DNA of 64,000 nucleotides from Coriobacteriia bacterium. Lineage in GTDB: Bacteria; Actinomycetota; Coriobacteriia; Anaerosomatales; SLCP01. The position numbers were made by a program, and so were the translations under genes. A model generated the notes under the pieces. The model did no database searches, was not told the DNA's origin, and saw only the letters and a program-made list of their open reading frames with translations. The first letter of the stretch is position 1; the number at the start of each line of letters is the position of its first letter. This document shows positions 4,940 through 36,476 of the stretch, one piece after another. The DNA lies in NCBI GenBank assembly GCA_007121015.1, contig SKMN01000028.1, positions 23,653-87,652 on the forward strand, given 5' to 3'.

Positions 4940-5014
4940 TGGTGGACGAGAAGGGATTCGAACCCTCAACCCCCTGCGTGCAAAGCAGGTGCGCTCCCGT
5001 TGCGCCACTCGCCC
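4940..5014 (-). tRNA. tRNA-Ala (anticodon UGC), CCA encoded
   Basis: Reverse complement is GGGCGAGTGGCGCAACGGGAGCGCACCTGCTTTGCACGCAGGGGGTTGAGGGTTCGAATCCCTTCTCGTCCACCA. It folds as a cloverleaf with a 7-bp acceptor stem, the G3:U70 Ala identity pair, anticodon loop TT-TGC-AC and T-loop TTCGAAT. Confidence 0.95.
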
Positions 5015-5087: not shown

Positions 5088-5462
5088 AAAAACCGGGATG
5101 GCCTTCGCACCGCCCGAGGTTCCCTTCGAAGGGATATCCTTGAGGGCTCTTGGCCGAGTGAGTACGTTCCCTCTCGGCCGCACCCTCGCACATCCAGGGG
5201 CTTATGCCCGACTCTCCGTGGCCATGATCCATCGATTCCGATCGTTACCCTTCTGCTCTGTACGTTCCGAGCAGTCGAACATCCGACAGTACATTCGATC
5301 AATCACTGATACGCCGACTCGCAACTACCGGCCGTCCGGAGGTCTTCATCTGCCATCCCGGTCGAGTCTCGGTTTAGCGTCTCATCCAATGAGAAGCCTC
5401 ACCTCACTTGACCGCCTCGGTTGTCAAGTGGTCTGGCGTCCCGCGGTTCGGATGCCTGACCT
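5088..5462 (-). ncRNA. Candidate structured non-coding RNA of unknown class (~375 nt)
   Basis: Lower-GC, ORF-poor stretch between the Trx-like gene and tRNA-Ala. GGTATAAT (-10 at 5474-5469) lies at the upstream end; a hairpin (5116-5093) plus U5 (5092-5088) lies at the downstream end. Several perfect local stems are present, e.g. CACUUGAC/GUCAAGUG, CUGCUC/GAGCAG, GGCCGAG/CUCGGCC, GGGC-AUAA-GCCC, CCCUU-CG-AAGGG. No RNase P, tmRNA, SRP or tRNA-Sec motifs were recognised. Confidence 0.35.
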
Positions 5463-5541
5463 ATATGTATTATACCCTCGTTCGCAGGTTACCTAATCGC
5501 ATCGAGGAGACGTCACGCTCTTTCCGTCCGCGTGCACGGCC

Positions 5542-6255
5542 TTACCGCAACGCGTCGAGTTTCGACCTCATCTCGCTCTCGGCGACCTCGCCCACGAGCC
5601 TCCCCGCCTCCGCGCCGTCAGAGCTCACGAACACGAACGTCGGCACGTACTGCGCGCCGTACGAGCGCATAAGGTCGGCGCCCTCCTGGCTCTTGTCGAC
5701 GTCGTAGACCTTGAAGGTGACCGTATCCTCGTACTCCTGCTCGAGCCTGTCGACCACAGGCTTCATCGTCTTGCACGCTGGTCACCAATCGGTCGAGAAG
5801 ACGTAGAGCACGGGGCCGTCACCTGCTACGACATCCTCCGGCATCTCGGCGATCTCGACCTCATCGGCCCCGGACACGATCGCGCCCTGGTAGGCGATGA
5901 TGCCTGCGGCGAGGTGGTAGACGTCGGTGAATCCCTGGTCGGCAAGGTAGCGGATGGCGTCCGAAGAACGAGCGCCGGTAGTGCAGTAGACGAGGACCGG
6001 CTCGTCCCGGTCCCACTCCATCGACTCGTGCGCAAGCATGTTCATCGGGACGTTCTCGGCCCGCTCGATGTGACTCATCTCGTACTCGCCCGGCGTCCTC
6101 ACATCGATGACGCGCACGCCTTCGGCCACGAGCTCGGCGGAACGCTCGGGCGATACGTCCTGCGCGCCGCCGCCTGCGGGACTGAACAGCAACACGCCGA
6201 CGCCTATGACGACGACCGCTGCGATCGCCCAGACGACCAGCTGCTTGTGACCCAT
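5542..6255 (-). CDS. Membrane-anchored rhodanese-thioredoxin fusion, candidate selenoprotein (in-frame UGA at 5784-5782 read as Sec)
   Basis: ORFs 5782..6255 (TM helix plus rhodanese, active-site loop VLVYCTTGARS) and 5542..5766 (Trx fold C-terminal part) are in one frame. Readthrough gives …VLYVFSTDW-U-PACKTMKPVVDRLEQEY…, i.e. the thioredoxin WCxxC motif with UGA at the first Cys. RBS GAGGAGG lies before ATG 6255. Confidence 0.7.
5744..5762 (-). promoter_or_regulatory. SECIS-like recoding hairpin
   Basis: AGCCUGU-GGUCG-ACAGGCU is a perfect 7-bp stem beginning 19 nt after the UGA. The apical loop contains GGUC, as in the E. coli fdhF SECIS loop. One further G:C pair is possible with a bulged A. 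Confidence 0.6.
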
Positions 6256-6286
6256 CGTACCTCCTCGTATGTGACGTTACCGGCAG

Positions 6287-6292
6287 ATTATA
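6287..6292 (-). promoter_or_regulatory. -10 box (TATAAT) for the rhodanese-Trx gene
   Basis: Minus strand reads TTGCGG-18 nt-(GG)TATAAT, about 32 nt upstream of ATG 6255. The same GGTATAAT octamer occurs at 5068-5061 and 5476-5469. Confidence 0.4.
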
Positions 6293-6438
6293 CCCCACCG
6301 GGTATTACGACCGCAACATTCGTTGCGCCGGGTACACGTCGTACTGTGCCGTGTCAGTCGCTTGGTAGCAAGCATGCGACCAAACCCCGTCTGTGGAATA
6401 CACTGACTCATGGGACCCGCCGAGGAGGGAGCACGCCG

Positions 6439-9400
6439 GTGTCAAACGAGCGCACTCACGTGCCAGCCGCGAGAGACGGCGTCGAAGAGCCTCTCAGGCG
6501 CGAACTGTTGAGCCCTGCCCGCGCTTCCCGCAGGGCCCGCGAGCTCGCCACCTCCCAGCGCTGGGAGGTGGCCCCTCCTTCCGAGGGTACGCCCCTGCTG
6601 TCGCTTCTCGAGTCGATCGCGTCCGACCTCGAAGCCGACAACCGCACCCTCACCATCGCCATGCGCGAGGGCCTCCCCGTGCCAGCGGCCACCGAATGGC
6701 TACTCGACAACCACTACCTCGTCCAGGCACAGATCCGCGCGGTTCGAGCCGACCTGCCCGCGCACTACGGTGCGGAACTCCCTCGGCTCACCGAAGGACC
6801 GAACAGCGGTCTACCAAGAGTCTTCGAGATAGCCCTTGCAGTCGTGACCTATACCGACGCGCTCCTCGACGAGCACTTCATCGGCCGATTCCTCACCGGG
6901 TACCAAGAGGAGTCTCCGCTGACCATCGGCGAGGTGTGGGCCGTGCCGACCGTGCTCAGGATCGCCCTGGCCGAGAACCTGCGCCGCCTTTCGGCCAGGG
7001 TCGTCGAGGTGTACCGGGCGACGCTCGCTGCCGATGGGGCCGCCGAGCGTCTCTTGGTGACAGCGCAAGAGGACCCGCGCCGACTGGGGGACCTGCTTGA
7101 CGAACTCGAGACCACGACCGGCGGAGAGTCCTTCGCGTTCGTCGCGCGCCTGTCTCAGCGGCTCCAGGGCCGTGAGACCGGATCCGCATCCGTCAACGAG
7201 TTCGTGGGACGAGCACTCGGGCGCACCGGCCTGGACGTGGACACGCTCAACCATCGGCTCCAGCAGGAACAGGCCACCGACCAGGTCTCGATCGCGAACA
7301 CGATCACGTCACTGCGCTTCCTCGAAGCGCTCGACTGGAAGCGCTTCTTCGAGAACACCAGCGTCGTCGATCAGGTATTGCGCGAGGACCCGGCGGGCGT
7401 CTACCACCGCATGGACTTCGAGAGTCGTGACCGGTACCGTCAGGCGCTCGAGATGCTCGCCAAGCGCTCCCCGCTCGACGAGGTACAGGTCGCTAAGGCG
7501 ATCGTCGAGCTGGCATCGGGGCGCGTCGGCGAAGTGTCCGGGCACATCGGTCACTACCTGCTCGGCGAAGGGCGCCTCGAACTCGAGCATCACATCTCGT
7601 ACTCGCCGCGTGCCAGAGAACGGCTCCACCGTGGTCCGCTGCGTTTCAGGGGGCTCTACTACTGGGGCGCCCTCGCCATCACGACGGCTCTGTTCGTCTC
7701 GGTGTTCGGCGCCTACGCCTGGTCGGCCGGAGCGAGTCTTATCGCGATCGTAGCGCTGTCGGTCCTAGCCGTGACCCCGCTGAGCGAAGTGGCCCTGACG
7801 CTCGTGAACCGCCTGAGCGCACGGCTGTTCCCACCACGGATCCTGCCGCGCCTCGATTTCCGAGAGCCGATCGCCGAAGCGCACCGCACACTCGTCGTCA
7901 TCCCGGCGCTCTTGTCTTCGGTAGGGGCGGTCCGCAACGTCATCGACAACCTCGAGGTCGCCTACCTCGCGAACCGTGATGACAACATAGGTTTCGGTCT
8001 CCTCGGCGACCTGAGAGCCGCAGATACCCCGCATCGCGACGGTGACGACGAGATCATAGAGGTAGCCGAACGCGGGATCGCGAAGCTCAACGCGCGCTAC
8101 CAGACCGAGCACGGACGTCGCCCGTTCTTCCTCTTCCTTCGCGGTCGCACGTACAACGAAGTCGAGCAGACGTGGATGGGCTGGGAACGCAAGCGCGGCT
8201 CCCTCGTCGAGTTGAACCGCGTGTTGCGAGGCTCTCGGGAGGCGAGCTTCACCCACCGTGCGGGAGACGAATCGTTCCTGTCAGGAGTCACGTTCGTGCT
8301 CACGATCGACGCGGACACCCAGCTTCCGCGCGACACGGCCCGCAAGCTCATCTCCACGATCGCCCACCCCATGAACCGTGCGCGCTACGAGCCCAACGAC
8401 CCGCGCGTGACGAGCGGTTACGGTCTCATCCAGCCGAGGGTAAGCATGTCGCTGCCCGCGTCGGCGCGCTCGCTGTTCGCGTGGCTCCACTCGGGCCCGA
8501 CCGGGCTCGACCCGTACTCCGGCGCCGTGTCCGACACGTACCAGGACGTGTTCGGCGAAGGCAGCTTCACCGGCAAGGGCATCTATGAGGTCAACGTGTT
8601 CAATGCCGTCCTCGACGGTCGGATCCCGGAGAACACGATGCTCTCCCACGACCTCGTGGAAGGATGCTACCTGCGGGTCGGGCTCGCCTCGGACATCGAG
8701 GTCCTCGACGACTACCCGGCTACCTATCGGGCACACGCCGCCCGGCTGCACCGTTGGGTACGGGGAGACTGGCAGACCATCCCGTGGCTCCTGCCGAGCG
8801 TCCCCACTGAGCGGGGTCGCGAACCCAACCCCCTGTCCCGCCTGCATCGGTGGAAGATACTCGACAACCTGCGGCGAAGCCTCGTGCCATCCTCGCTACT
8901 GCTTCTGATGACCGTAGGCTGGGCCGCCCTGCCCGGTCAGGCGTGGGCGTGGCCGCTCGCCACGACACTCATCGTATTGTTCCCCGTGTACTTCTCGGCG
9001 GTCGACGGACTGCTCACCCGCTCTACCAACGTCCCGTTCCGCCGCAACGCACGCAGGGTGTGGCAGGAGTTCGGACGAGATGCCGCCCGGTCGCTGCTCG
9101 CGCTGTTACTCCTTCCGCATCAGACGGTCCAGATGCTCGACGCCTCCGTGCGGGCACTCTGGCGCATGTGGGTGAGCCGCACAGGCCTGCTCGAGTGGGA
9201 GACCGCCGCCGATGTCGAGCGTCGCCTCGGAGACGACCTCCGGGGCTTCGTCCGACGGCTCGGTCCCTCTGCTCTCCTCGGCGTGGCACTCCTCGTGCCA
9301 GGGTCGGTGACTACGCCCGAGCGGCTGTCTATCGCCATCCCGATCTCTCTTGCGTTCCTGGCGGGCCCGTTCGTCGCGTGGCGCGTGTCGCGTCCTCGAC

Positions 9401-12400
9401 CCGAGCGGGTACTCGAGATCGACAGGAGCGCGCGAGAACAGTTGCGGCGCACCGCGCGCTCGACGTGGTTCTTCTTCGAGACGTTCGTCGGTCCGGAAGG
9501 CAACTACCTTGCGCCCGACAACTACCAGGAAGACCCCAAGGGCGAAGTGGCGTACCGGACCTCCCCGACGAACATAGGGCTCCAGCTGATGGCCGGTCTT
9601 ACCGCGTACGACCTCGGCTACATCCCGCTGACGAGACTCGTCGAGCGCACGAGCGACACCCTCAACACCATGGCGGGCCTCAAGCGGTTCCGCGGCCACT
9701 TCTACAACTGGTACGACACCCGCACGCTCGAGCCTCTCCCGCCCCACTACATCTCGACGGTCGACAGCGGCAACCTCGCCGGAAACCTCCTCGTGCTCCG
9801 GATAGGCCTCCTCGAGGCTTCGGAGGCATCGATGATCGGGCCGCAGGTCACCAGCGGCCTCGCCGACACCGCGCGCATGGTGCGCGACGAGATCCACTCC
9901 TTACGCGGCCGGATAGGCCCCGACGACACCGCGAGCGAGCTGTACGATATCGTCGAAGAGCTGCGCCGGGATGCGCTGCTCGAGGAGCCTCCGCACAACC
10001 TCGGCGGGTGGCGCGCCGTGGTGGACCGATGGACCAGGATGGCGGCACGGGCCCAGTCCATGGTCGCGAGCCTCCACACCCTCGACGGTGCGGCCGGTGA
10101 CGACCCCGAGGCACCGTGCGTCGAGGGGCTTTCGGACCCGGCCGAGTGCCTACGCCGCCTCACCGAGCGCTTAGCGATCCACGTGCACGACCTGTCCGAG
10201 ACCCTCGAGCGGCTGGCCCCGTGGGCGCACCTCGTCGTCGATCCGCCACGGGCTTTGCCCTCGCACGGGCATACCGCATCTCTCGCGCCCATCATCGAAC
10301 ACATCCCGAGCCTCGTCGGACTCGCGGAGGGGCTTGCAGAGACCCTAGAGGGACTCGACGCCCTCGCCTCCGACCCACCGGACACCACCCCCGCCGAGCA
10401 GGCGGCCGTCTCGGAGTGGGCGCGTGCGGTCTCCGACGGGATCGTCGCGGCACGTCCGGCATGCGTCGAACTCCTCGCCCGACTCCGCCTCGATGCAAGC
10501 ATCGCCCGCGAGATGTGGGAGCACACCGACTTCACCATGCTCTTCGACGAACAGCGCCTTCTCTTCTCGATCGGATACAACACTGCCGAGGGGCACCTCG
10601 ACGGCTCCTACTACGACATGCTCGCTTCTGAGTGCCGCCTCGCGAGCTTCCTTGCCATCGCAAAAGGTGATGTGCCTCAGGAGCACTGGTTCCGCCTCGG
10701 CCGGCAGATCACCGCCGTGAACGGGAATCGGGCGCTGCTGTCGTGGAGCGCCTCGATGTTCGAATACCTCATGCCGCTACTCGTCATGCGCTCGTGGCCG
10801 ATGACGCTACTGGACGAGACGTACGCCGCCATCGTCGCCCGGCAGATCTCCTACGGACGCGAGCTCGGGGTCCCGTGGGGGGTCTCCGAGAGCGCCTTCA
10901 ACGTCAAGGACGCAGACCTCACCTACCAGTACCAGGCGTTCGGGGTTCCGGGGCTCGGACTCAAGCGCGGTCTTTCCGAGGACATCGTCGTCGCACCGTA
11001 CGCCTGCATCCTCGCACTGCCGATCGTCCCGAGCAGCGCGGTCGCGAATCTCACCGAGCTCGAGGCGATAGGCGCTCGCGGGCGGTTCGGGTTCTACGAG
11101 GCGATCGACTTCACCCCCGGGCGGGTACCCGCCGGCAAGCGCCGGGCGATCGTGCGCGCGTACATGGCGCACCATCAGGGGATGAGTCTCGTCGCTATCG
11201 GGAACACGCTGACCGGTGAACGGATGCAGGAACGGTTCCACGCCGATCCCATGGTCACCTCGGCGGAACTGTTGCTGCAGGAGCGCGTACCCCGGGCCGT
11301 CGAGCTGGCGACACCGCACGTCGAGGAGGTCGAGCAAGTCCGCTCGGTGCGCGAACTCCCCGTTCCGGCGAACCGTTCGTACCCGACCGCCGACACGCCC
11401 GTACCCGCGACCCACTTCCTGTCCAACGGCCGCTACTCCGTCATGGTCACGAACGGGGGTGGCGGCTACAGCACGTGTGGCGGACTTGCCGTCACGCGCT
11501 ACCGCGAAGACGTCACCCGCGACTCGTGGGGGCACTTCTTCTTCGTCCGGGACACGGAAAGCGGCGAAGTCTGGTCGGCGACCCGCAACCCGACGCCGGT
11601 GGAACCCGACCACTACCGGGTGACGTTCTCTGCGGACAAGGCAGAGTTCCAGCGTACCGATGGTGACATCGAGGTCGCCACCGAGGTCGCCGTCTCCCCC
11701 GAGGACGACGTCGAGGTGCGCCGGCTCACGGTGGCGAACCGTGGCACCTCCTCCCGCACCCTCGATGTCACGAGCTACTTCGAGATCGCGCTCACCGACC
11801 AGGCTGCCGATCAGGCCCACCGCTCCTTCTCCAACCTGTTCGTCGAGACCGAGGCCGTGCCGGACGCGTGCGGCATCCTCTTCTCGCGACGCCCCCGCTC
11901 TTCCGCCGAGGAACGCTACTGGGGCTTCCACGTACTCGGAGGTGACCTGGCCGAGGAGTGCGACTGGTCGTTCGAGACCGATCGGGCACGCTTCCTGGGC
12001 CGGCTTCGCGGCGTGGACTCTCCCGTCGCGCTCGACCCGGGAGCAGCGCTCACCGGTACGGTCGGAGCCGTCCTCGACCCGGCCTGTGCGATCCGGCAGT
12101 CGGTGACCCTCGAGGCCGGAGAGAGCGCGCGTCTCGTATTCGTGACCGGTGTCGCGTCCGTGCGCGACGACGCTCTCGAGCTCGCAGAACGGTACCATGA
12201 CGTGCGAGCGGCCCAGCGGGCGATCGACCTGTCGTGGACGGCGTCGCAGATCGAGCTGCGCGATCTCGGCATCGGCTCGGGCGAAGCCGTCACCCTCCAG
12301 CGCCTCGCCTCCCGCCTCTTGCTCACGGACCCGCACTCGGCTCTCAAGGTGGTCACGCCTGTGGAGAACGGGCTGCCGATATCGGCGCTGTGGTCGCTCG

Positions 12401-15249
12401 GCATCTCCGGGGACATGCCGATCCTGCTGGTACAAGTCGATGAGCTGGAGCACGCGCCGCTGGTGCGGCAGGCGCTTCTCGCCCACCAGTACTGGCGTCA
12501 CAAGGGCCTCGTCGCCGACCTCGTGATACTCAACACGCGGCCGTCGGCGTACAGCGACGAGCTCGACGACCGCCTCAAGCTGCTCGTGCGCACCGGGCAC
12601 GCGATGCAGCTCGTGGACAAGCCCGGGGGCGTGTTCCTCAGGCGAGCAGACCACATGCACCCCGACGTGCTCAACCTCCTCATCACCGTCGCCCGTGCCG
12701 TCCTTGACGGTAATGGGGGCCCGCTCGAGCTACAGCTCAACCAGCGCTCCATTCACCCTACCGACCCCCCGGCGCTCCCGGTGGTGCGCGAGCCGGGGTC
12801 CTACCCCGCTCCCGCGTTCGAGCGACCCGCCCTCGTGCACGACAACGGGTACGGTGGGTTCGACCCGGACACCGGCGAGTACGTGATCGTGCTCGAGGGC
12901 CCCTCGGCCACCCCTGCACCGTGGATCAACGTGATGGCGTCCCCGCACTTCGGCTGCATGGTGTCAGAAGCCGGCATCGGGTGCACGTGGGCGGAGAACA
13001 GCCACGAGAACCGCATCACGACGTGGAACAACGACCCGGTCTCCGACGGGTCGGGCGAGGTCATCTACGTGAGAGACGAGGAGACGGGCGAGGTCTGGAG
13101 TCCCACACCGCTTCCGTGCCGCTCCGACGAACCGCACGTGATCCGCCACGGATTCGGCTACTCGCGCTTCGAGCACACCACCCACGGCGTAGCCCACGAA
13201 CTCGACTGGTTCGTGCCCGAAGACGACCCGGTCCGTGTCGTGCGCCTCCGTCTCACGAACCTCACCGACCGGAGACGGGCGCTCTCCGTCACCCAGTTCG
13301 TGGAGTGGGTCCTCGGCTCGTCGCGCAGCAAGGCCCAACACCTCGTGGTCACCTGGTACGACGCCGAACACGAGATACTCACCGCGCACAACCACTACAA
13401 CCCCGACTTCCCCGGCCGCGCGGCGTTCCTCGCCTCCGACCGCCCGCTCTTCTCGTGGACCGCGAGCCGGACCGAGTTCGTCGGCCGCAACGGTCACCCT
13501 TCGCGGCCCGCAGCGCTGCGCCGCGAGCACCTGCACGGCCGCTCAGGCAGGTTCCACGACAACTGCGGCGCGATGATGGTGCGCGTCGACCTGGAGGCGG
13601 GCGCGAGCGAGGAGATCGTCTTCCTCCTCGGCCAGACTGACACGATCGATGCCACGCGCGAGATCGTCGCGCGCTACCGCATCCCCGGCTCGGCCGAGGC
13701 CGCCCTCGACGCCGCCCGCTCCGGGTGGGACCGGCTACTCGCGACGGTGGACGTCCGCACCCCCGATCCCGAGCTCGACGCACTCGTCAACGGCCGCCTG
13801 CTCTACCAGGCGCTCGCGTGCCGGCTGTGGGGGCGCACCGCGACGTATCAATCCTCCGGCGCGTTCGGCTTCCGCGACCAGCTCCAAGACACCCTCTGCC
13901 TCATCTACTCGCGCCCCGATCTCGTGCGCGCTCAGATCGTCGAGGCCTCGCGTCACCAGTTCCCCGAAGGCGACGTCTTGCACTGGTGGCAGCCGGTCTC
14001 CGGCCGAGGGGTGCGCACCCACATCACCGACGACCGCCACTGGATGGCGTTCGTGTGCGCCGAGTACGTGCGGACCACCGGCGATACGGACGTGCTCGAC
14101 GTCCGCACGCCGTTCATCGACGCACCCGCGGTCGACGAGGGTGCCGAAGACGCCTACGTGGTGCCCACCGTCACCGAAGAGGCGGTCACCGTGTATGAGC
14201 ACTGTGTCGCGGCACTCGAGACATCGTTCGCCGTAGGCGAGCACGGACTCCCGCTCATCGGCGGGGGGGACTGGAACGACGGCATGAACCGCGTGGGACA
14301 CGAAGGCCGAGGCGAGAGCGTGTGGATGGCGTGGTTCCTCGACGTCGTGCTCCGCGGGTTCGCGCCCCTGTGCGAGCTGCGCGGGGAGTCCGAGCGGGCC
14401 GAGCGCTACCGCGCCCACGCGCGCGCGCTCGTCGACGCTGCCGAGGAGGCCGGCTGGGACGGGGGCTGGTACCGGCGCGCGTACTTCGACGACGGCACGC
14501 CGCTCGGCACGAAGGATGCCGAGGAGTGCCGTATCGACGCGATCGCTCAGGCGTGGGCGGTCATCTCCGGCGAGGGCGACGCGATCCGGGCTGCGCGCGC
14601 TCTCGACGCGGTCGAGGACAAGCTGGTGCGACGGGAGGATGAGCTCATCGCGCTGCTCACGCCTCCGTTCGACCGCATGGAACACGATCCCGGCTACATC
14701 AAAGGCTACGTCCCCGGCGTGCGCGAGAACGGTGGCCAGTATACGCACGCGGCGCTCTGGGTCGTCCTCGCCCACCTCTTGCGCGGCGACGGAGACGAGG
14801 CACTCTCCCTCATCGACCTCATCAACCCGGTCAACCATGCGCGCACCACCGAGGATGCAGATACCTACCGGGTCGAACCGTACGTGGTCGCCGCCGACGT
14901 CTACGCTGTCGAACCACACGTCGGTCGCGGCGGCTGGACATGGTACACCGGCTCGGCATCGTGGTTCTATCGCGTCGCCGTCGAGTACCTCCTCGGCCTG
15001 AAGCTCGTCGCGGTCGACGGGAAGCGCCACTTCACGGTCGACCCATGCATCTCGAAGCAGTGGCCCGGCTTCGAACTCACATACCGCTACGGAGAAGCGA
15101 CGTTCCGGGTGACGGTGGAGAACCCGCGCGGCATCAACCGTGGCGTCGCACGCGTCGAGCTCGACGGCGAACCCGTCACGGACGGGCTCATAGCGCTCGA
15201 CGGGGCTGTCGGCGAACACGACGTCCGGGTCGTGCTCCTCGGCGGGTGA
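6439..15249 (+). CDS. cgs: Cyclic beta-1,2-glucan synthase-like protein (GT84 glycosyltransferase + GH94 glucan phosphorylase domains), ~2,936 aa
   Basis: Hallmark Cgs/NdvB/ChvB motifs are present: …ATEWLLDNHYLVQAQIR…, …LTIDADTQLPRD…, …FTGKGIYEVNVF…LSHDLVEG…. The C-terminal GH94-type …PLIGGGDWNDGMNRVG…ENGGQYTHAALW… is also present. Start re-placed at GTG 6439, 7 nt after RBS GGAGGGAG. The track ORF start at 5914 lies antisense to the neighbouring gene. Confidence 0.85.
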   Translation: MSNERTHVPAARDGVEEPLRRELLSPARASRRARELATSQRWEVAPPSEGTPLLSLLESIASDLEADNRTLTIAMREGLPVPAATEWLLDNHYLVQAQIRAVRADLPAHYGAELPRLTEGPNSGLPRVFEIALAVVTYTDALLDEHFIGRFLTGYQEESPLTIGEVWAVPTVLRIALAENLRRLSARVVEVYRATLAADGAAERLLVTAQEDPRRLGDLLDELETTTGGESFAFVARLSQRLQGRETGSASVNEFVGRALGRTGLDVDTLNHRLQQEQATDQVSIANTITSLRFLEALDWKRFFENTSVVDQVLREDPAGVYHRMDFESRDRYRQALEMLAKRSPLDEVQVAKAIVELASGRVGEVSGHIGHYLLGEGRLELEHHISYSPRARERLHRGPLRFRGLYYWGALAITTALFVSVFGAYAWSAGASLIAIVALSVLAVTPLSEVALTLVNRLSARLFPPRILPRLDFREPIAEAHRTLVVIPALLSSVGAVRNVIDNLEVAYLANRDDNIGFGLLGDLRAADTPHRDGDDEIIEVAERGIAKLNARYQTEHGRRPFFLFLRGRTYNEVEQTWMGWERKRGSLVELNRVLRGSREASFTHRAGDESFLSGVTFVLTIDADTQLPRDTARKLISTIAHPMNRARYEPNDPRVTSGYGLIQPRVSMSLPASARSLFAWLHSGPTGLDPYSGAVSDTYQDVFGEGSFTGKGIYEVNVFNAVLDGRIPENTMLSHDLVEGCYLRVGLASDIEVLDDYPATYRAHAARLHRWVRGDWQTIPWLLPSVPTERGREPNPLSRLHRWKILDNLRRSLVPSSLLLLMTVGWAALPGQAWAWPLATTLIVLFPVYFSAVDGLLTRSTNVPFRRNARRVWQEFGRDAARSLLALLLLPHQTVQMLDASVRALWRMWVSRTGLLEWETAADVERRLGDDLRGFVRRLGPSALLGVALLVPGSVTTPERLSIAIPISLAFLAGPFVAWRVSRPRPERVLEIDRSAREQLRRTARSTWFFFETFVGPEGNYLAPDNYQEDPKGEVAYRTSPTNIGLQLMAGLTAYDLGYIPLTRLVERTSDTLNTMAGLKRFRGHFYNWYDTRTLEPLPPHYISTVDSGNLAGNLLVLRIGLLEASEASMIGPQVTSGLADTARMVRDEIHSLRGRIGPDDTASELYDIVEELRRDALLEEPPHNLGGWRAVVDRWTRMAARAQSMVASLHTLDGAAGDDPEAPCVEGLSDPAECLRRLTERLAIHVHDLSETLERLAPWAHLVVDPPRALPSHGHTASLAPIIEHIPSLVGLAEGLAETLEGLDALASDPPDTTPAEQAAVSEWARAVSDGIVAARPACVELLARLRLDASIAREMWEHTDFTMLFDEQRLLFSIGYNTAEGHLDGSYYDMLASECRLASFLAIAKGDVPQEHWFRLGRQITAVNGNRALLSWSASMFEYLMPLLVMRSWPMTLLDETYAAIVARQISYGRELGVPWGVSESAFNVKDADLTYQYQAFGVPGLGLKRGLSEDIVVAPYACILALPIVPSSAVANLTELEAIGARGRFGFYEAIDFTPGRVPAGKRRAIVRAYMAHHQGMSLVAIGNTLTGERMQERFHADPMVTSAELLLQERVPRAVELATPHVEEVEQVRSVRELPVPANRSYPTADTPVPATHFLSNGRYSVMVTNGGGGYSTCGGLAVTRYREDVTRDSWGHFFFVRDTESGEVWSATRNPTPVEPDHYRVTFSADKAEFQRTDGDIEVATEVAVSPEDDVEVRRLTVANRGTSSRTLDVTSYFEIALTDQAADQAHRSFSNLFVETEAVPDACGILFSRRPRSSAEERYWGFHVLGGDLAEECDWSFETDRARFLGRLRGVDSPVALDPGAALTGTVGAVLDPACAIRQSVTLEAGESARLVFVTGVASVRDDALELAERYHDVRAAQRAIDLSWTASQIELRDLGIGSGEAVTLQRLASRLLLTDPHSALKVVTPVENGLPISALWSLGISGDMPILLVQVDELEHAPLVRQALLAHQYWRHKGLVADLVILNTRPSAYSDELDDRLKLLVRTGHAMQLVDKPGGVFLRRADHMHPDVLNLLITVARAVLDGNGGPLELQLNQRSIHPTDPPALPVVREPGSYPAPAFERPALVHDNGYGGFDPDTGEYVIVLEGPSATPAPWINVMASPHFGCMVSEAGIGCTWAENSHENRITTWNNDPVSDGSGEVIYVRDEETGEVWSPTPLPCRSDEPHVIRHGFGYSRFEHTTHGVAHELDWFVPEDDPVRVVRLRLTNLTDRRRALSVTQFVEWVLGSSRSKAQHLVVTWYDAEHEILTAHNHYNPDFPGRAAFLASDRPLFSWTASRTEFVGRNGHPSRPAALRREHLHGRSGRFHDNCGAMMVRVDLEAGASEEIVFLLGQTDTIDATREIVARYRIPGSAEAALDAARSGWDRLLATVDVRTPDPELDALVNGRLLYQALACRLWGRTATYQSSGAFGFRDQLQDTLCLIYSRPDLVRAQIVEASRHQFPEGDVLHWWQPVSGRGVRTHITDDRHWMAFVCAEYVRTTGDTDVLDVRTPFIDAPAVDEGAEDAYVVPTVTEEAVTVYEHCVAALETSFAVGEHGLPLIGGGDWNDGMNRVGHEGRGESVWMAWFLDVVLRGFAPLCELRGESERAERYRAHARALVDAAEEAGWDGGWYRRAYFDDGTPLGTKDAEECRIDAIAQAWAVISGEGDAIRAARALDAVEDKLVRREDELIALLTPPFDRMEHDPGYIKGYVPGVRENGGQYTHAALWVVLAHLLRGDGDEALSLIDLINPVNHARTTEDADTYRVEPYVVAADVYAVEPHVGRGGWTWYTGSASWFYRVAVEYLLGLKLVAVDGKRHFTVDPCISKQWPGFELTYRYGEATFRVTVENPRGINRGVARVELDGEPVTDGLIALDGAVGEHDVRVVLLGG

Positions 15250-18326: not shown

Positions 18327-19522
18327 GCTCAGCCAGCCCGCACGGTGCCGGCCCCCGGACCGTCTACGAGCGCCTGGTGCACCTCATACTTCAGCAGCGC
18401 CTACCTGCCGGCACGCTCGACATCACGTGGCCTGGTGGCGGGACGACGAGCTACATCGGCCGAGAGACCGGTCCTCACGCCGAGGTGCACCTGCACGACA
18501 GCGCCGCCGCCAAGCACATCGCCCGTGCAGGCTCGATGGGCCTCGCGGAGTCCTACATGGACGGACGGTGGGACACGCCCGACCTGACCGCCGTGCTGGA
18601 CCTCGGCGCCGCCGGCATGAAAGCGGGCGGGATGGAGGGTGCCGACGGACGTCCTTCGGTCGTGCACCGACTCGCACACGCGCTCGCCGCCAACACCCGT
18701 CGCGGCTCGAAACGCAACATCGCCGCCCACTACGACCTCGGCAACGATTTCTACGAGCTGTGGCTCGATCCCGGCATGACGTACTCGGCGGCCTGCTTCG
18801 AGGACGACTGCGCCAATCTGGCCGAGGCGCAGCGCCGCAAGTACGACCGCATGCTCGAGATCACCGACCCCGACACCCGCTCGCACTTGCTCGAGATAGG
18901 CTGCGGGTGGGGCGGATTCGCCGTACACGCAGCCCGGACCGCCGGGTGCCGGGTGACCGGCGTCACCCTCTCGCGCGAGCAGTACGACCGGGCGCGGGCC
19001 CGCGTGGTCGCCGAAGGCCTCGAAGACAGGATCGACATCGTACTGAAGGACTACCGCGACGTCCCTGGCACCTACGACCGCATCGTGTCGATCGAGATGT
19101 TCGAGGCCGTAGGCGAGCGGTACTGGCCGGTGTTCTTCCGCCGCGTCCGCGAGCTGCTGACGAAGACCGGGGCGGCGGCTATGCAGACGATCACGATCCC
19201 CGAGGAGCGGTTCGAGAACTACCGCGACAACCCCGACTTCATCCAGCGCTACATCTTTCCCGGCGGCATGCTGCCGAGTCCCGAGCGGTTCGCACTCGCT
19301 GCACACGACGCCGGGCTCGAGGTCGGCGAGCCGCACTTCTTCGGCCACTCGTACGCCGACACGCTACAGGCGTGGCTCGGACGGTTCGACTCGGTGGCCG
19401 ACGACGTCCGTGTACTCGGCTTTGACGAGCGGTTCGTACGGATGTGGCGCTTCTACCTCGCGTTCTGTCGCGCCGGTTTTCGCTACGACTCCATCGATGT
19501 CATGCAGGTCGCGCTCAGGTAG
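18320..19522 (+). CDS. cfa: Cyclopropane-fatty-acyl-phospholipid synthase family SAM methyltransferase
   Basis: ATG 18320 after GAGGAGGAG. Motifs …NIAAHYDLGNDFYELWLDPGMTYSAACF…LLEIGCGWGGFAVHAA…SIEMFEAVGERYW…YIFPGGMLPS…WRFYLAFCRAGF… are diagnostic of the CFA synthase family. Confidence 0.9.
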   Translation: MVGSASPHGAGPRTVYERLVHLILQQRLPAGTLDITWPGGGTTSYIGRETGPHAEVHLHDSAAAKHIARAGSMGLAESYMDGRWDTPDLTAVLDLGAAGMKAGGMEGADGRPSVVHRLAHALAANTRRGSKRNIAAHYDLGNDFYELWLDPGMTYSAACFEDDCANLAEAQRRKYDRMLEITDPDTRSHLLEIGCGWGGFAVHAARTAGCRVTGVTLSREQYDRARARVVAEGLEDRIDIVLKDYRDVPGTYDRIVSIEMFEAVGERYWPVFFRRVRELLTKTGAAAMQTITIPEERFENYRDNPDFIQRYIFPGGMLPSPERFALAAHDAGLEVGEPHFFGHSYADTLQAWLGRFDSVADDVRVLGFDERFVRMWRFYLAFCRAGFRYDSIDVMQVALR

Positions 19523-24464: not shown

Positions 24465-25133
24465 CTACACGCGGCCGAGCAGCTCCGGCAGCTCGGAGAT
24501 GGACGCGAGCGCGTGGTGGGGGCCGGGCGCGAGGAGCTCCTCGGCCGAGAACGCCCCCCAGAGCGCTGCGATAGCAAGCGCCCCGCCAGCTAGCGCGGCA
24601 GCCATGTCGTACGGGCTGTCGCCTACGTACGCACAACGCTCGATCGGCACGCCGAGTCGTGTCGCCGCGTGACAGAGCGGGAACGGGTCCGGCTTGTGTA
24701 CCTCGACGTCGTCGGCGGTGACGACGACCGGGAAGTAGTGGCTCAGCCCGAACACCGCAAGGCCGTGGTGCGCCATCGGCGAGCCCTTCGAGGTCACCAC
24801 GCCCATCGGTCGGCCGGTCGCTGCGATGGCGTCGAGCGCCTCGTGGACACCCGGATACTCGCGCGCTATCTCGTCGTGATGGGCGGCATTGTGCTCGCGG
24901 TAGACGCGCACGAGCTCCTCGGCGTGATCGGGCGCGAACTGGCGCATCTGACGCGAGAGCGGCACGCCGATGTTCTCGAGCAGCAGCCTGTCAGGCAACG
25001 GTTCGCCGAGGACGGCGCCCGTGGCGTGCCGGAACGACGTCAAGATGAGCTCGATGGTGTCGATGAGCGTGCCGTCGAGGTCGAACAGGACGGCATCGAC
25101 CGCTGAGACCCGCTCGTCGGCTCCGCTCGTCAC
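24465..25133 (-). CDS. HAD-superfamily hydrolase (phosphoglycolate phosphatase/PpaX-like)
   Basis: GTG 25133 overlaps the gyrA stop as GTGA. HAD motifs are [14 protein letters not shown] (I), VVTSK (II) and [12 protein letters not shown] (IV). Confidence 0.85.
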
Positions 25134-27742
25134 TCCTCGGCCTCGAGCTCTTCGAACTCCTCGCTCACAAGGGCCTCCGCCTCGGCTTCGCGCTCCACCT
25201 CGGACGCCGGGACGGGGCACGCATCCTCAGAGGCGCTCGCCGTTCCCGGTGCCTCTTCCGCGCCGAGCACTCCCTGGCCCTCGGCCACGCGTGGTGGGGC
25301 CGGACGCTTCTTGCCGCCTGCGGAGACACGTGCGATCGCGCGTACGCGGTCGGTCTCGGAGACGTTCATCACCTTGACGCCCTGCGTCGAGCGCCCGAGT
25401 TTCGAGATGTCCTGCGCCCGGACCCTGATCACCACGCCCTCATCGGATATCAGCATGAGCTCGTGGTCGGGCCGGACGATCTTCATGCCAGCAAGCGGCC
25501 CTTTCTTGGGTGTCACCTGGATGGTCTTCACTCCCATGCCGCCGCGCCTCTGCACCGGATACTCGACCACCGGCGTGCGCTTGCCGTATCCGCGCTCTGT
25601 CACAACGAAGAGCTCGCTGTCTGCCGGCGCGATCTCCATGCCGAGCACGGCATCGTCGCCCTTGATCGCCATGCCCTTCACGCCCATGGTACCGCGACCC
25701 ATCGGCCGCGCGTCGGCCTCGTCCCACACGATCGCCTTGCCGTGGGCCGACACCATCATGACCCGCTCGCCCGACCTGACGCGGCGAACGGAGATGAGCT
25801 CATCGTCGCTTCGCAGGTTGATGGCGATGATCCCGTCGCGCCTGGAGCGGTCGTAGGCACTCATCGCCGTCTTCTTGCACATACCCTTCCTCGTCGCGAA
25901 GAGCAGGTAGTCCTCGGCGCCGAACTCACGCGTGTTGATGACGGCTGCGATGCGCTCGTCGGCGGCGAACGGCAGCAGGTTCACGATGGCGGTCCCTCGC
26001 GCGTGCCTCGACCCCACAGGCAGTTCGTGCACCTTGAGGCGGTAGACCTTGCCCGCCGAGGAGAAGAACAACACGTAGTCGTGAGTCGAGCTGATGAAGA
26101 GGTGCTCGACGAAGTCGTTCTCGCGCAGGTTCACCCCGGCTACGCCCTTGCCGCCGCGCTTCTGCTGGCGGTACGTCGCCACCGGGAGGCGCTTGACGTA
26201 GCCCGCCTTCGTGATGGTGACGACCATGTCCTCCTCGGCGATGAGGTCCTCGACGTCGAGGTCGTGGGCGACCGTGGTGATCTCGGTGCGTCGTGGATCG
26301 GCGAACTTCGCGCGGATCTCGGCCATCTCCTCTTTGATGATGTCGAGCACGAGCTGCACGTCGCCGAGCACCTTCTTGTACCAGGCTATGCGCTCGCGCA
26401 ACACGCCGAGCTCCTCTTCGATCTTCGTGCGCTCGAGACCGGTAAGGCGGCGCAGACGCATCTCGAGGATCGCGTCGGTCTGCGCCTCCGAGAGCCCGAA
26501 CCGCTCGATGAGACGACCCTTGGCCTCGCTGTCGTCCGCCGAGGACCGGATGATCGCGATGACCTCGTCGATGTTGTCGAGAGCGATGACGTAGCCCTCG
26601 AGGATGTGTGCGCGTTCCTCGGCCTTGCGAAGTTCGAACTTGGTGCGCCTGGTGATGACCTCTTTCTGGAACTCGATGTAGTGCGAGAGGATCTCTTTGA
26701 GGGTGAGCGTGCGCGGGACGCCGTCGACGAGCGCGAGCATGTTCATGCCGAAGCTCGTCTGCAGCGGCGTGTGCTTGTAGAGCTTGTTGAGCACGACCTG
26801 CGGCACGCACACCTGCTTGAGCTCGATGACGATGCGCATGCCCTTGCGGTCCGACTCGTCACGTAGGTCCGAGATCTCGGTGAGCTTCTTCTCGCGCACG
26901 AGTTCGGCGATCTTGGTTACGAGTTTGGATTTGTTCACGGCGTACGGTATCTCCGTGACGATGATGCGGGTCCGCCCTGTCGAGGTCTGCTCGATGTGGG
27001 CCTTGCCGCGAACGCGGATCGAGCCGCGTCCCGTCGTGTACGCGTCCTGGATACCGTCGCCGCCCATTATCATCGCCCCGGTGGGGAAATCCGGACCCGG
27101 CACCACGCTCATCAGCTCTTCGGTCGTCGTTTCGGGGTTGTCTATGAGCATCGTGGTCGCGTCGATGACTTCACCGAGGTTGTGCGGGGGGATGTTCGTC
27201 GCCATTCCCACGGCGATACCGGCGCTGCCGTTGACGAGCAGGTTCGGGTAGCGGCTCGGCAGGACGACGGGTTCGAGGAGGGACTCGTCGTAGTTGGGTC
27301 CGAAGTCGACGGTCTCCTTGTCGAGGTCGCGGAGCAGCTCCGTCGACACCTTATGCAGCCGTGCTTCCGTATAGCGCATCGCTGCCGCGGAGTCTCCGTC
27401 GACCGACCCGAAGTTCCCATGCCCGTCGATGAGCGGCGCGCGCATCGCCCAGGGCTGCGCCATGCGGACCATCGTGTCGTACACAGCCGCGTCCCCGTGC
27501 GGATGGTACTTACCGATGACCTCTCCGACCGTCCACGCGGACTTCTTGAACGGACGCCCCGGCGTCAGGTTCGACTCGTTCATCGCGTAGAGGATCCGCC
27601 GATGCACCGGTTTGAGTCCGTCACGCACGTCGGGGAGCGCTCGGGACACGATGACGCTCATGGAGTACTCGAGGAAGCTGTCGCGCAGCTCCTGTTGGAT
27701 CTCGATGGGAAGTACCGTGCTACCCGCCATCTCTTCAGCCAC
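25130..27742 (-). CDS. gyrA: DNA gyrase subunit A
   Basis: …[30 protein letters not shown]…[20 protein letters not shown]… plus C-terminal beta-pinwheel repeats and an acidic tail. Start is GTG 27742 or ATG 27730. Confidence 0.97.
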
Positions 27743-28294
27743 TTAGAGCACTCCTTGCTTCCGAAGACTACGTACGACCAACCACACTCCGAGAGCCACG
27801 AGGCCCGCGCCCATGAGTCCCATGACTCCAGCCCCGAGGTACGCCGTCGGACCCGACTCGAGCGTCCGCGCAAGCGCCACTCCCGACCACACCACGAGCA
27901 CGAGACCCATCGCGGTCAAGAAGAGGCCCGCGACCATCCCTACCTTCCAAACCTCCGAAGCCGGATCCGGCTCTTCTGCTCGGAGGGCCATCAACATCGC
28001 GTCGACGTTCGCGGCGTCCGGCTCGTCCGCCGCCTCTCGCCCTTCCTGCGCACTATCGACCCGCTTACCCGCCTCGTGTGCCGAGTCCGCAGACACCGCG
28101 CCCTCTGCGCCGATCGCAGACGCGTGTTCTTCAGACAGCGAGCCCTCAGCGTCGGCGTCGGCGCGCTCGGCCTCCGCCACCGCTGCCTCTTCGGCCGCCC
28201 TTTCTCGCTCTCGTGCCAGCTCCTCGAACTGCTCCTTCTCCCACGGCGGCGGCTCGAACGGCTTGGCTGCTCGTCTGTGGGGCTGGTCAGCCAT
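27743..28294 (-). CDS. Hypothetical membrane protein (acidic N-terminal region, two C-terminal TM helices)
   Basis: ATG 28294 lies 13 nt after the gyrB stop, and the TAA stop abuts the gyrA GTG. Sequence is MADQPHRRAAKPFEPPPWEKEQFEELARERERAAEEAAVAEAER… then …VGMVAGLFLTAMGLVLVVW…GLMGAGLVALGVWLVV. No recognisable family. Confidence 0.55.
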   Translation of the reverse strand: MADQPHRRAAKPFEPPPWEKEQFEELARERERAAEEAAVAEAERADADAEGSLSEEHASAIGAEGAVSADSAHEAGKRVDSAQEGREAADEPDAANVDAMLMALRAEEPDPASEVWKVGMVAGLFLTAMGLVLVVWSGVALARTLESGPTAYLGAGVMGLMGAGLVALGVWLVVRSLRKQGVL

Positions 28295-28307
28295 CAGGCA
28301 CGTCCGA

Positions 28308-30287
<1,980 letters not shown>

Positions 30288-30299
30288 TTAACACAATGC

Positions 30300-30878
30300 C
30301 TAGGGTAAACCCCCCGAATCTGTATCTGTGGGCCTCTCAGAGCCTCTCTCCGCGCTCTTTCGTTTCGCTTGAGCCTTTTTCCACTCCAGGTCGCGCATCG
30401 TGGCCCTCATCGCCGCCTCTCGCAGGGCGTCGCCCGGTATCGCTTCGGCCGATCTCTCAACCCACTCCCGCTCCTCTTTCGTGAGCGGCTCTGGCGTGAC
30501 GCGCTCCCCTCCGTAGCCCCTCCTGATCGCACGGTCCACGCGCCTGCGCCGCGCTCGTTCTTCGACCGCGGCGGAAACAGTGAACCGCACCGAACCTACC
30601 AGGCTCTCACCGAGTGCTGAATTCAGTCTTTCCCTGAGGTGTTCGCCCATCAGCGATAGCTCTGCTGCCCAGGCGTGCGAGTCGACATGGACGACGAGCT
30701 CCTCGCCTCGCAGTACAAGACCTGCCGTGTGTCGTGATACATCAGGCCCCACCACGCCGTCCCACACCTCTTCCACCCGCGCCTGAGCCAGTCCCGTGCC
30801 TCTCGCATCCGACCGGGCGATGAGGTCCCGGAGCAGGTCGCCTACGCGAACGGGTCTGCTTGAGCGCTCAGCGCACAT
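30300..30878 (-). CDS. DUF721 (DciA-like) protein
   Basis: ATG 30878 overlaps the recF end by 11 nt. Sequence is MCAERSSRPVRVGDLLRDLIA…VEEVWDGVVGPDVSRHTAGLVLRGEELVVHVDSHAWAAELSLMGEHLRERLN…. This is a typical DUF721 core in the conserved recF-gyrB position, plus a ~80-aa charged C-terminal extension. Confidence 0.8.
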   Translation of the reverse strand: MCAERSSRPVRVGDLLRDLIARSDARGTGLAQARVEEVWDGVVGPDVSRHTAGLVLRGEELVVHVDSHAWAAELSLMGEHLRERLNSALGESLVGSVRFTVSAAVEERARRRRVDRAIRRGYGGERVTPEPLTKEEREWVERSAEAIPGDALREAAMRATMRDLEWKKAQAKRKSAERGSERPTDTDSGGLP

Positions 30879-31995
30879 CGGCGACCTCCACGATCTCTGC
30901 CTCCTCGAGCATCTCCGGGGCGAAGTACGCCAGGTTCGTCGTCGTGAGCAACGCCTGGGGTCCGGACTCCACGAACTCCTGAAGGGCCGCTCTCCGTTTC
31001 TCGTCGAGTTCGGACATGACGTCGTCGAGGAGAAGGACGGGCGTGCATCCAAGCACGGCACCGACCACTTCGGCTTCGGCCATCTTCCAGGCGAGCGCAA
31101 GCGACCGCTGCTGTCCCTGAGACGCGAAGCCGCGCGCCGACAATCCCTCGATCAGCAAGACGAGGTCGTCGCGGTGAGGGCCGACGAGCGTCACCCCTCT
31201 TGCCCGTTCCTTCCGGGACACTCTCTCGAGAGCCTCCCTCATCAACCATTCCACCTCGTCCCTGCTCGCTGCCGCCCATTCGCGTGGAGGCCGGGTCTCT
31301 CCGCCCCATGATGTCTCGAAACGCATCTCTACCCGCTCTCCGACCGAGAGGGTCTCGTAGAAAGGCACGATCGCTTCCTCTATCCGGGATGCGAGACGGG
31401 CCCTGTGGATGAAGAACGAAGCTCCGGTCCTCGCGAGGACCTCGTCCCACTCGACCGTATCTCTCCTCGCCTCGCCCTGCTTCAAGAGAGCGGTCCTTTG
31501 CCTGACGATTTTGCCGTACTCTGACCTCAGGGTCCCGTACGCCGGCGAAAGCTGGGATCCGAGCACATCGAGCGCGTGCCTCCTCACCTCCCCCGACCCC
31601 TTGGCGAGTTGCAGGTCATCGGGCACAAAGGTGACTACGGGGACCCTTCCCGCCACATCAGACGCCTTCCTCTTCTTCGTCCCATCCACGAAGAAACTCT
31701 TTCTCCCCGAGGATTCGACGTCGAGTCCAAGCCTCACCGGAACCAGACCGCGCTCCGCGTCCAACCGCACTCGCGCGAGAGCCTCACCCTCCTTGACGAC
31801 ATCGGGCCACGAGAACTGTCTGAAGGACGTTGCTGACGAGACGAGCGTCACCGCTTCGAGCAGGTTGCTCTTACCGATCGCGTTCGGTCCGACGAGGATC
31901 GTCATACCGGGTCCCGGCCTCACCGTCACCGCTTCGTGGTTCCTGAAGGAGAGGACATCTATCGACCGTATCCGTACCGGCGTACGTTCGTTCAT
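30868..31995 (-). CDS. recF: DNA replication and repair protein RecF
   Basis: 375 aa with Walker A GPNAIGKSNLLEA, signature …SQGQQRSLALAWKMAE… and Walker B …VLLLDDVMSELD…. Confidence 0.95.
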   Translation of the reverse strand: MNERTPVRIRSIDVLSFRNHEAVTVRPGPGMTILVGPNAIGKSNLLEAVTLVSSATSFRQFSWPDVVKEGEALARVRLDAERGLVPVRLGLDVESSGRKSFFVDGTKKRKASDVAGRVPVVTFVPDDLQLAKGSGEVRRHALDVLGSQLSPAYGTLRSEYGKIVRQRTALLKQGEARRDTVEWDEVLARTGASFFIHRARLASRIEEAIVPFYETLSVGERVEMRFETSWGGETRPPREWAAASRDEVEWLMREALERVSRKERARGVTLVGPHRDDLVLLIEGLSARGFASQGQQRSLALAWKMAEAEVVGAVLGCTPVLLLDDVMSELDEKRRAALQEFVESGPQALLTTTNLAYFAPEMLEEAEIVEVADVR

Positions 31996-31996
31996 C

Positions 31997-34756: not shown

Positions 34757-34776
34757 CGACCCTGCCTCCAACCCTG

Positions 34777-36193: not shown

Positions 36194-36238
36194 GATTTCA
36201 TCCCAGTTTGACGGGTGGCGAGAAGCCGGGTCGCGGGT

Positions 36239-36445: not shown

Positions 36446-36476
36446 GGGGGCTCTCGGGACAGCTGGAGCGCCAACC

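Follow-up and report, generated by a model that had tools for sequence, protein, structure and literature searches.

Selenoproteins that carry a thioredoxin (Trx) fold or a rhodanese domain are known in several forms. A 2026 inventory lists Trx with a UxxC motif, thiol:disulfide interchange proteins, and five rhodanese forms with selenocysteine (Sec) either in the rhodanese domain or in TsoB (PMC13188914). A fusion of rhodanese and Trx that carries its Sec in the Trx motif is absent from this inventory. Here, we describe a candidate for such a protein in a stretch of 64,000 nucleotides from a Coriobacteriia bacterium (GenBank assembly GCA_007121015.1, contig SKMN01000028.1, positions 23,653 to 87,652), hereafter called the window. 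Positions 6255-5542 on the minus strand very likely represent a single gene for a 237-residue membrane-anchored rhodanese-thioredoxin selenoprotein with a predicted Sec at residue 158. Both the mechanism of recoding and the chemistry of a UxxC Trx are conventional; the architecture and the probable location of the protein are new. With this family, the known Trx-fold selenoproteins gain a rhodanese-Trx architecture that is anchored in the membrane and probably extracytoplasmic.

Sec-containing thioredoxins of the Treponema denticola type (PF00085, UxxC; PMC13188914) resemble the window protein in several respects. Both have a Trx fold with Sec in place of the first nucleophilic Cys, a bacterial selenocysteine insertion sequence (SECIS) immediately downstream of the UGA codon, and existing Cys homologues. 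In the window protein, however, the Trx domain makes up the C-terminal half of an anchored and probably extracytoplasmic rhodanese fusion. The motif of the orthologues is U-P-[S/T/A/V/E]-C rather than U-G-P-C, with Pro directly following Sec as in CPHC or CPYC, and the residue preceding Sec is W, T or S. The only curated selenoprotein of comparable domain logic is TsoB (NF045694, rhodanese/DsbD fusion-like; "rhodanese form 5" in PMC13188914), which likewise joins a rhodanese to a Trx-like or DsbD-type module. The TsoB model spans 572 positions, including a DsbD-like part and a UxxxxU motif with two Sec, whereas the window protein has one Sec in UxxC, a single transmembrane (TM) helix and no DsbD membrane domain. 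Membership in TsoB was rejected (42.8 bits against a cutoff of 805), and no NCBIfam model claims the window protein.

The NCBIfam models for GlpE and PspE are among the best sub-threshold matches of the window protein. These single-domain rhodaneses share its sulfurtransferase-type loop C-X4-R-[ST], and thioredoxin is an established sulfur acceptor of GlpE. The partners in the PspE and GlpE systems are separate and carry Cys only, whereas here they are fused and anchored with Sec as the predicted nucleophile of the acceptor. By analogy, a persulfide relay within the window protein would be a fused form of the partnership between a GlpE-type rhodanese and thioredoxin. The order of parts is shared with Cys-type rhodanese-Trx lipoproteins of Bacteroidota (P0049-P0055, P0063, P0065, P0068; loci L011, L015, L022, L040 and others), namely signal or lipobox, rhodanese with C-x-x-G-x-R-S, linker and Trx. 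The Bacteroidota fusions differ in their low identity (26-31%), their W-C-x-P-C motif and their gene contexts. They also show no hairpin constraint downstream of the motif and encode K-M-E/K-P-x-L where the window gene encodes K-P-V-V-D-R-L. One such lipoprotein gene (L167 4618-7723, GCA_031411335.1) lies at the end of an ars-like cluster encoding an ArsR-type helix-turn-helix protein, a methyltransferase, an ArsC of the low-molecular-weight phosphatase type and a MIP channel, which hints at an arsenic-handling role for this Bacteroidota branch.

Gene structure and domain composition

The gene is a single minus-strand frame of 237 codons from ATG 6255-6253 to TAA 5544-5542, and its sole interruption is TGA 5784-5782 at codon 158. 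The upstream open reading frame (ORF; 6255..5782) encodes 157 residues ending in ...VLYVFSTDW. Beyond the TGA, the unchanged frame reads PACKTMKPVVDRL... up to the TAA. The downstream ORF on its own comprises 74 residues with ATG 5766 as the sole listed start. The read-through coding sequence (5542..6255, minus strand) with one internal UGA is matched by the same single-TGA architecture in eight genome and 77 metagenome orthologous loci. A Shine-Dalgarno motif, GAGGAGG, is located at 6260..6266 (minus strand), 4 nt 5' of the start codon. A consensus scan of 5350-6500 recovered neither a sigma-70 promoter nor an intrinsic terminator. A TATAAT-like motif occurs near 5480, between the selenoprotein gene and the tRNA-Ala(UGC) gene of the window.

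The protein begins with MGHKQ-LVVWAIAAVVVIGVGVLLF, in which residues 6-24 (LVVWAIAAVVVIGVGVLLF; 6184..6240, minus strand) form a predicted signal-anchor helix preceded by Lys and His and followed by acidic residues. The rhodanese domain covers residues 33-125 (5881..6159, minus strand). Its active-site loop reads Y-C91-TTGARS, with the Cys91 codon at 5985-5983 (minus strand) and with R96 and S97 closing the C-T-T-G-A-R-S loop. An acidic linker of about 25 residues joins the rhodanese to the Trx-fold domain, which spans the UGA (residues 140-237; 5545..5838, minus strand) and carries the cis-Pro motif Y-V-P205-T-F. The UGA codon itself (5782..5784, minus strand) would encode the first residue of U158-P159-A160-C161, with the C161 codon at 5775-5773 (minus strand). 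With Cys placed at codon 158, residues 44-123 of the read-through product match Pfam Rhodanese (PF00581; 57.5 bits, cutoff 22.2) and residues 140-234 match Thioredoxin (PF00085; 53.6 bits, cutoff 23.5). Since the PF00085 match includes codon 158, the stop codon falls inside the Trx fold. The beta-strand VLYVFSTDW lies 5' of the UGA and the remainder of the fold lies 3' of it. A preliminary description of this DNA had proposed two ORFs in a common frame split by the TGA and, upon read-through, a rhodanese-Trx fusion with an N-terminal anchor. The minus-strand coordinates and features, both Pfam matches and the hydrophobic helix bear this out.

Conservation of the UGA codon

Orthologous loci were chosen by alignment of the rhodanese part only, which makes the selection blind to the sequence past the TGA. 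The TGA is present at codon 158 in all eight Coriobacteriia/Actinomycetota genome loci and is followed in frame by P-x-C and by roughly 79 residues of conserved Trx domain. Among 80 metagenome loci, two contigs stop before the site, leaving 78 informative ones. The TGA is found in 77 of these, 76 directly and one (L124) after correction of a start artefact, while L143 is not comparable. The orthologues with the conserved TGA share 35-99% identity, and their in-frame Trx part after the TGA is consistently 76-80 residues long. No Cys codon occurs at position 158 among the approximately 85 orthologous genome and metagenome loci, and each of 84 orthologous sequences inspected there reads TGA. The retained UGA with its continuing frame settles a check raised in the preliminary description, namely whether orthologues show two genes or a pseudogene at this point.

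The sequence downstream of the UGA evolves as coding sequence. Its invariant codons (P159, C161, P166, L171, V and others) vary at the third position only, with an entropy per codon position of 0/0/~1, and the GC content at third codon positions (GC3) is 0.91. Across 69 read-through orthologues, the Trx residues P159, C161, P166, V168, L171, P205 (the cis-Pro), F207, G214 and G222 are invariant, as are C91, G94, R96 and S97 of the rhodanese loop. Judging from this coding-type conservation, the downstream frame is under purifying selection.

Cys counterparts identify the residue that the UGA replaces. Distant uninterrupted fusions, mostly from Bacteroidota and at 26-31% identity, carry W-C-[AGIV]-P-C at the UGA position. 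Thioredoxins in the PDB align over residues 138-235, and their first active-site Cys (WCGPC) falls on codon 158. Both comparisons agree with the proposal in the preliminary description that UGA stands in for the nucleophilic Cys of the Trx motif. The split between Sec and Cys forms agrees with the reported distribution of Sec decoding, as tRNA-Sec and selB are reported in most Eggerthellaceae (PMC13462651) and Bacteroidetes are without the Sec trait (PMC5322559).

Protein databases hold the family in shortened form. A search with the read-through query recovered about 48 homologues at 40-99% identity, all of them 150-190 residues long, ending at ...[FY][STA]TDW and aligning to the first 66% of the query only. 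A look-up of the 157-residue ORF of the window by its exact sequence gave no record, and the ORF is represented by a 99% identical entry (P0001). Orthologues from Anaerosomatales and from Coriobacteriia metagenome-assembled genomes are labeled "rhodanese-like domain-containing protein" at NCBI. The family is widespread in Coriobacteriia, and databases carry it as a truncated rhodanese with an orphan Trx fragment behind it.

The downstream hairpin

A spacer of 19 nt separates the UGA from a perfect 7-bp stem formed by AGCCUGU (5762-5756) and ACAGGCU (5750-5744), which enclose the loop GGUCG (5755-5751). The spacer, stem and loop were read exactly as the preliminary description had given them. 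The hairpin (5744..5762, minus strand) has a conserved core of 6 bp (5761-5756 with 5750-5745), and the stem begins 19-20 nt past the UGA. We aligned 78 distinct 66-nt sequences anchored at the UGA without gaps, and the spacing between UGA and stem is constant with zero indels. Over the 7-bp stem, 96.7% of the alignment cells can pair compared to 22-50% if the 3' partner is shifted by 1-3 columns. For the 6-bp core, the value rises to 99.8%. Two pairs covary without ever being broken. Pair 27-37 is UA in 55 sequences, CG in 21 and GC in two (23 double changes), and pair 28-36 is GC in 54 and CG in 24 (24 double changes). The covariation score of 0.263 compares to 0.096 in shuffled alignments and was reached by none of 500 shuffles. 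RNAalifold predicts the identical helix. Among nine stem haplotypes, eight have all core pairs standard and the ninth has a single C-A mismatch; they include GCCUGU/ACAGGC, GCCUCU/AGAGGC, GCCCGU/ACGGGC, GCCCCU/AGGGGC, GCCGGU/ACCGGC and GCCGCU/AGCGGC. The loop is GGUCG in 70 of the 78 sequences. On the sequences compared, the conservation of the UGA and the covariation of the hairpin are together far beyond chance.

The published bacterial SECIS (bSECIS) model defines a loop of 3-9 nt, a stem of 4-16 bp, a distance from UGA to loop of 16-37 nt and a minimum free energy of -7.5 kcal/mol or lower, with a G within the first two nucleotides of the loop and G or U next (PMC13188914). The hairpin lies within all four published constraints, having a 5-nt loop, a stem of 6-7 bp, G followed by G/U, 26 nt from UGA to loop and -11.2 kcal/mol. 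A SECIS role, for which the preliminary description had called for a model comparison and a search for covariation, is supported on both counts. The same description had called the hairpin fdhF-like, which is a reasonable label. In Escherichia coli fdhF, the SECIS hairpin starts 11 nt after the UGA and has a bulged U in the upper stem. An intragenic hairpin directly 3' of the Sec-UGA and a small loop starting with GGUC are shared by fdhF, the FdhA genes of the lineage and the rhodanese-Trx gene. The likeness extends to the loop, and to the GGUCU hairpins of lineage FdhA, but not to the bulged U or to the position of the stem, which starts at 19-20 nt rather than at 11. Within the lineage, the loop is GGUCG in the rhodanese-Trx gene and GGUCU in FdhA (L172-L174), and the stem starts 19-20 nt and 12 nt after the UGA, respectively.

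The hairpin lies within the codons for K-P-V-V-D-R-L, and the covariation of its stem couples amino acid changes, with PVVDRL, PVVDGL, PLVERL and PLVEGL found among orthologues. The element is a clean case of an RNA signal constraining protein sequence, as stem covariation forces V-D-R to become L-E-G. The stem also retains an otherwise rare AGG codon for Arg, which is able to pair with CCU. A crude scan of the window and lineage loci for other in-frame TGA codons followed by a hairpin yielded, besides the rhodanese-Trx gene, only off-frame GC-rich noise.

Evidence for selenocysteine decoding in the lineage

Formate dehydrogenase genes of relatives provide good indirect evidence that the lineage decodes Sec and uses SECIS elements with a GGUC loop, as predicted for the rhodanese-Trx gene. 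A chromosome of 2,668,373 bp with an orthologue of the selenoprotein gene (OY968780.1, L006) encodes an FdhA with UGA at the canonical Sec site. The FdhA contig and OY968780.1 agree in GC content (67.2% and 67.3%). This FdhA reads ...NNVDHCARL-[UGA]-HSSTVAG... over 907 residues with a single UGA, followed by a GUCGCC-GGUCU-GGCGAC hairpin. Two further genomes of the lineage likewise have the UGA in FdhA, with compensated stems and the GGUCU loop. The FdhA selenoprotein genes (L172 10001-12724, L173 10001-12721 and L174 10001-12715) place the GGUCU-loop hairpin 12 nt past the UGA. The enzymes are of the NAD-linked type and adjoin NuoE/NuoF-like and Wood-Ljungdahl genes. In locus L100, an FdhA gene downstream of the selenoprotein gene is cut off by the locus end a single codon short of the canonical Sec site. 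The hydrogenase large subunit in L144 is of the Cys type (DPCIGCAVH) and uninformative.

The lineage FdhA is called as two ORFs of about 358 and 530 residues, and the best 120 database matches to FdhA are all about 352-360 residues long and therefore cut at the Sec-site codon. Being split in the same way as the rhodanese-Trx gene, the FdhA genes point to systematic misannotation. For the cosmopolitan subsurface group OPB41/Anaerosomatales, split annotations would cause metabolic reconstructions to miss selenium dependence.

By the comparative evidence, a ribosome meeting UGA 5784-5782 very likely encounters a downstream hairpin that acts as a bacterial SECIS. The hairpin would recruit SelB-GTP-Sec-tRNA(Sec), and Sec would be inserted instead of termination with translation running on to the TAA at 5542. 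Without Sec insertion, for instance under selenium shortage, the UGA would act as a stop and the product would be the anchored rhodanese of 157 residues that databases list.

Possible function and location

The predicted product consists of a signal-anchor helix, an outward rhodanese domain with Cys91 in C-X4-R-S, the acidic linker and a Trx fold with Sec158 in U-P-x-C161. A topology with the N-terminus inside and both domains facing outward is likely from the sequence. The outward orientation is supported by orthologues whose N-termini have Lys-rich tails or a lipobox (P0046, ...LATAGC) and by Bacteroidota Cys homologues with lipoprotein signals. The preliminary description had regarded an extracytoplasmic location as unusual for a selenoprotein. 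This was overstated, as the inventory lists predicted Sec-containing DsbA-like, thiol:disulfide-interchange and TlpA-like proteins.

A persulfide relay in which an outward persulfide on Cys91 is handled by U158-P-x-C161 is possible, and we propose it tentatively. Cys91 would take sulfane sulfur from thiosulfate, polysulfide or a persulfide to form Cys-S-SH. The selenolate of Sec158 would then attack the Cys91 persulfide, releasing the sulfur or passing it on. Cys161 might resolve the adduct to a Sec158-Cys161 selenenylsulfide, and this bond would be re-reduced by a membrane electron donor. The protein would then be a self-contained relay of a sulfurtransferase and a "selenoredoxin" on the outer membrane face of anaerobic Coriobacteriia in the OPB41/Anaerosomatales lineage. 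Thiosulfate, sulfur or Fe(III) serve cultured Anaerosomatales in respiration (PMC9686372). Such sulfur and iron respiration makes persulfide chemistry plausible without proving it. Slightly less probable is the combined view of an uncatalogued, apparently Sec-fixed family with Sec on the outer face of monoderm anaerobic Coriobacteriia, serving as a fused extracytoplasmic persulfide or thiosulfate relay with a selenium-dependent switch. If true, the relay could be tied to the sulfur and metal respiration of OPB41/Anaerosomatales or to the neighboring giant GH94 glucan enzyme. Stopping at the UGA would then provide a selenium-dependent switch between a rhodanese-only and a rhodanese-Trx product. 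The protein offers a natural fusion for studying the hand-over of a rhodanese persulfide to a selenolate, and cultured Anaerosomatales strains permit direct testing if they carry the gene.

Weighing of alternative explanations

Several observations weigh against a selenoprotein. Pfam annotation and a tRNA scan found no selA, selB, selC or selD in the 64-kb window, where the only tRNAs are tRNA-Ala and tRNA-Ile. Scans of the window and 41 loci found no tRNA-Sec, and tblastn with E. coli SelA, SelB and SelD against 1.9 Mb of locus DNA recovered no sel genes. Nothing on the Sec machinery was found in the supplement of the Anaerosomatales paper either. The FdhA evidence for Sec decoding comes from relatives and not from the window's own genome. 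A candidate electron donor is equally missing from the vicinity, with no CcdA/DsbD or ResB/ResC gene near the selenoprotein gene in the window and the orthologous loci examined. The bulged U of E. coli fdhF is missing from the hairpin, and Rfam gave no relevant match, whether gathering or permissive thresholds were applied. We rejected a longer lower stem (columns 8-12 with 51-55), in which pairing reaches 75% and about half of the sequences break two pairs; the want of a supported lower stem is a further difference from the fdhF SECIS. Folding of 5725-5790 as a single sequence is unremarkable (z = -0.71 against shuffles, in DNA of 66% GC). The structural argument is consequently entirely comparative, since single-sequence folding is not distinctive.

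The split could alternatively reflect a broken gene, by a nonsense mutation or a sequencing error in the Cys codon, or two separately expressed genes. NCBI and gene callers indeed annotate a 157-residue "rhodanese-like domain-containing protein" and a weak Trx of 74 residues, and the position of the internal ATG 5766 is ATG in 65 of 75 orthologues. Yet about 85 independent loci, the most distant of them 35-40% identical, carry the identical TGA with the frame kept and no Cys codon, and the part downstream is under purifying selection. A separate 74-residue protein would have a Trx fold missing both beta-strand 1 and the nucleophile. Some orthologues have CTG, GTC or ATT in place of the internal start, and the window sequence has no Shine-Dalgarno-like motif before it. 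The conserved downstream codons together with an internal ATG that lacks a Shine-Dalgarno motif and is replaced in several orthologues exclude two independent genes or a pseudogene, and we regard this explanation as extremely improbable. Nearly as improbable is decoding of the UGA as a standard amino acid without Sec, by lineage-wide reassignment of UGA to Trp or by near-cognate read-through. Such reassignment exists within the class Coriobacteriia in some Eggerthellaceae (PMC13462651), and the residue preceding the UGA is often Trp. The reassigned Eggerthellaceae clade, however, has 31-40% GC, is without RF2 and avoids UGA stops (PMC13462651), whereas the window has 66% GC. TGA is the stop codon of 21 of 27 Pfam-verified window genes, including dnaA, dnaN, gyrA and gyrB, so codon reassignment is excluded. 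Homologues carry Cys rather than Trp at codon 158, and a covarying hairpin at SECIS distance would have no role in a simple reassignment.

If the gene does encode a selenoprotein, roles other than a persulfide relay deserve consideration. The preliminary description had suggested a ResA/TlpA-like location and a possible relation to maturation of a multihaem cytochrome. On this view, the protein might be an extracytoplasmic thiol-disulfide reductase for cytochrome c maturation with the product of ORF 49979-51376 (plus strand) as its client. This ORF is real, with four CxxCH motifs, an N-terminal signal, a C-terminal TM helix and weak Pfam matches to Cytochrome_C554, c3 and MtrC/MtrF-like models, and its product resembles a divergent multihaem cytochrome c with a membrane anchor. 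A ResA-like membrane anchor with an outward Trx fold would fit the role, and cultured Anaerosomatales encode multihaem cytochromes (PMC9686372). The TlpA/ResA-type Pfam models nevertheless stay under their cutoffs (AhpC-TSA 23.7 against 26, Redoxin 17.1 against 26.6) while the classical Thioredoxin model passes, and the surroundings of the gene contain no ccdA, resB or resC in the loci examined. The cytochrome gene is 44 kb away and outside the conserved neighborhood, which leaves the link speculative. A maturation role would moreover leave the invariant, catalytically competent-looking rhodanese domain unexplained, making this role decidedly unlikely. The protein might instead partner the head-to-head giant GH94/glycoamylase, cyclic beta-1,2-glucan synthase-like, and support an envelope glucan machinery through redox chemistry or sulfur transfer instead of serving general sulfur metabolism. 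Besides the window, 46 of the 59 orthologous loci whose upstream sequence is long enough have the divergent GH94 gene next to the selenoprotein gene, at identities as low as 38%. The best NCBIfam match of the rhodanese part is a sub-threshold model named "rhoda_near_glyco", though its score is 54 against a cutoff of 145. The adjacency could be mere inherited synteny near the replication origin, a whole subclade of 13 loci retains the selenoprotein without a GH94 neighbor, and no known chemistry connects rhodanese or Trx to glucan synthesis. We consider a role in glucan synthesis unlikely.

Genomic neighbourhood

The selenoprotein gene is monocistronic and lies between the divergent GH94/glycoamylase gene and the gene for tRNA-Ala(UGC) (4940-5014, minus strand). 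The giant GH94/glycoamylase protein of about 2936 residues is encoded at 6439-15249 on the plus strand, 183 bp from the selenoprotein gene. The 5' part (5914-6438) of the GH94 ORF as listed, with 3111 residues, overlaps the selenoprotein gene and is spurious. The pairing with GH94 is also found in L161 and L164-L166. The tRNA-Ala(UGC) gene closely follows the selenoprotein gene in the window, in L001-L008 and in most other loci of the lineage. Genes further downstream differ among loci and encode a Mrp antiporter or P-II/Amt. Locus L100 belongs to the subclade without GH94 and carries, at 8997-12462, the selenoprotein gene, a YkuD-like gene, an unknown gene and a NuoE/NuoF/FdhA operon. This contig holds two selenoprotein genes less than 5 kb apart.

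The window covers a replication-origin region at 25133-41584, with gyrA, gyrB, recF, dnaN and dnaA on the minus strand and rpmH, yidC, jag, rsmG, parA and parB on the plus strand. Three coding-like ORFs at 18404-19363 (minus strand), 27746-28381 (minus strand) and 60479-61339 (plus strand) had no Pfam match at E values up to 0.001, and the second of these sits between gyrA and gyrB. The cytochrome-like ORF 49979-51376 adjoins rubrerythrin and HtrA genes. GC3 is lower around 32-40 kb of the window.

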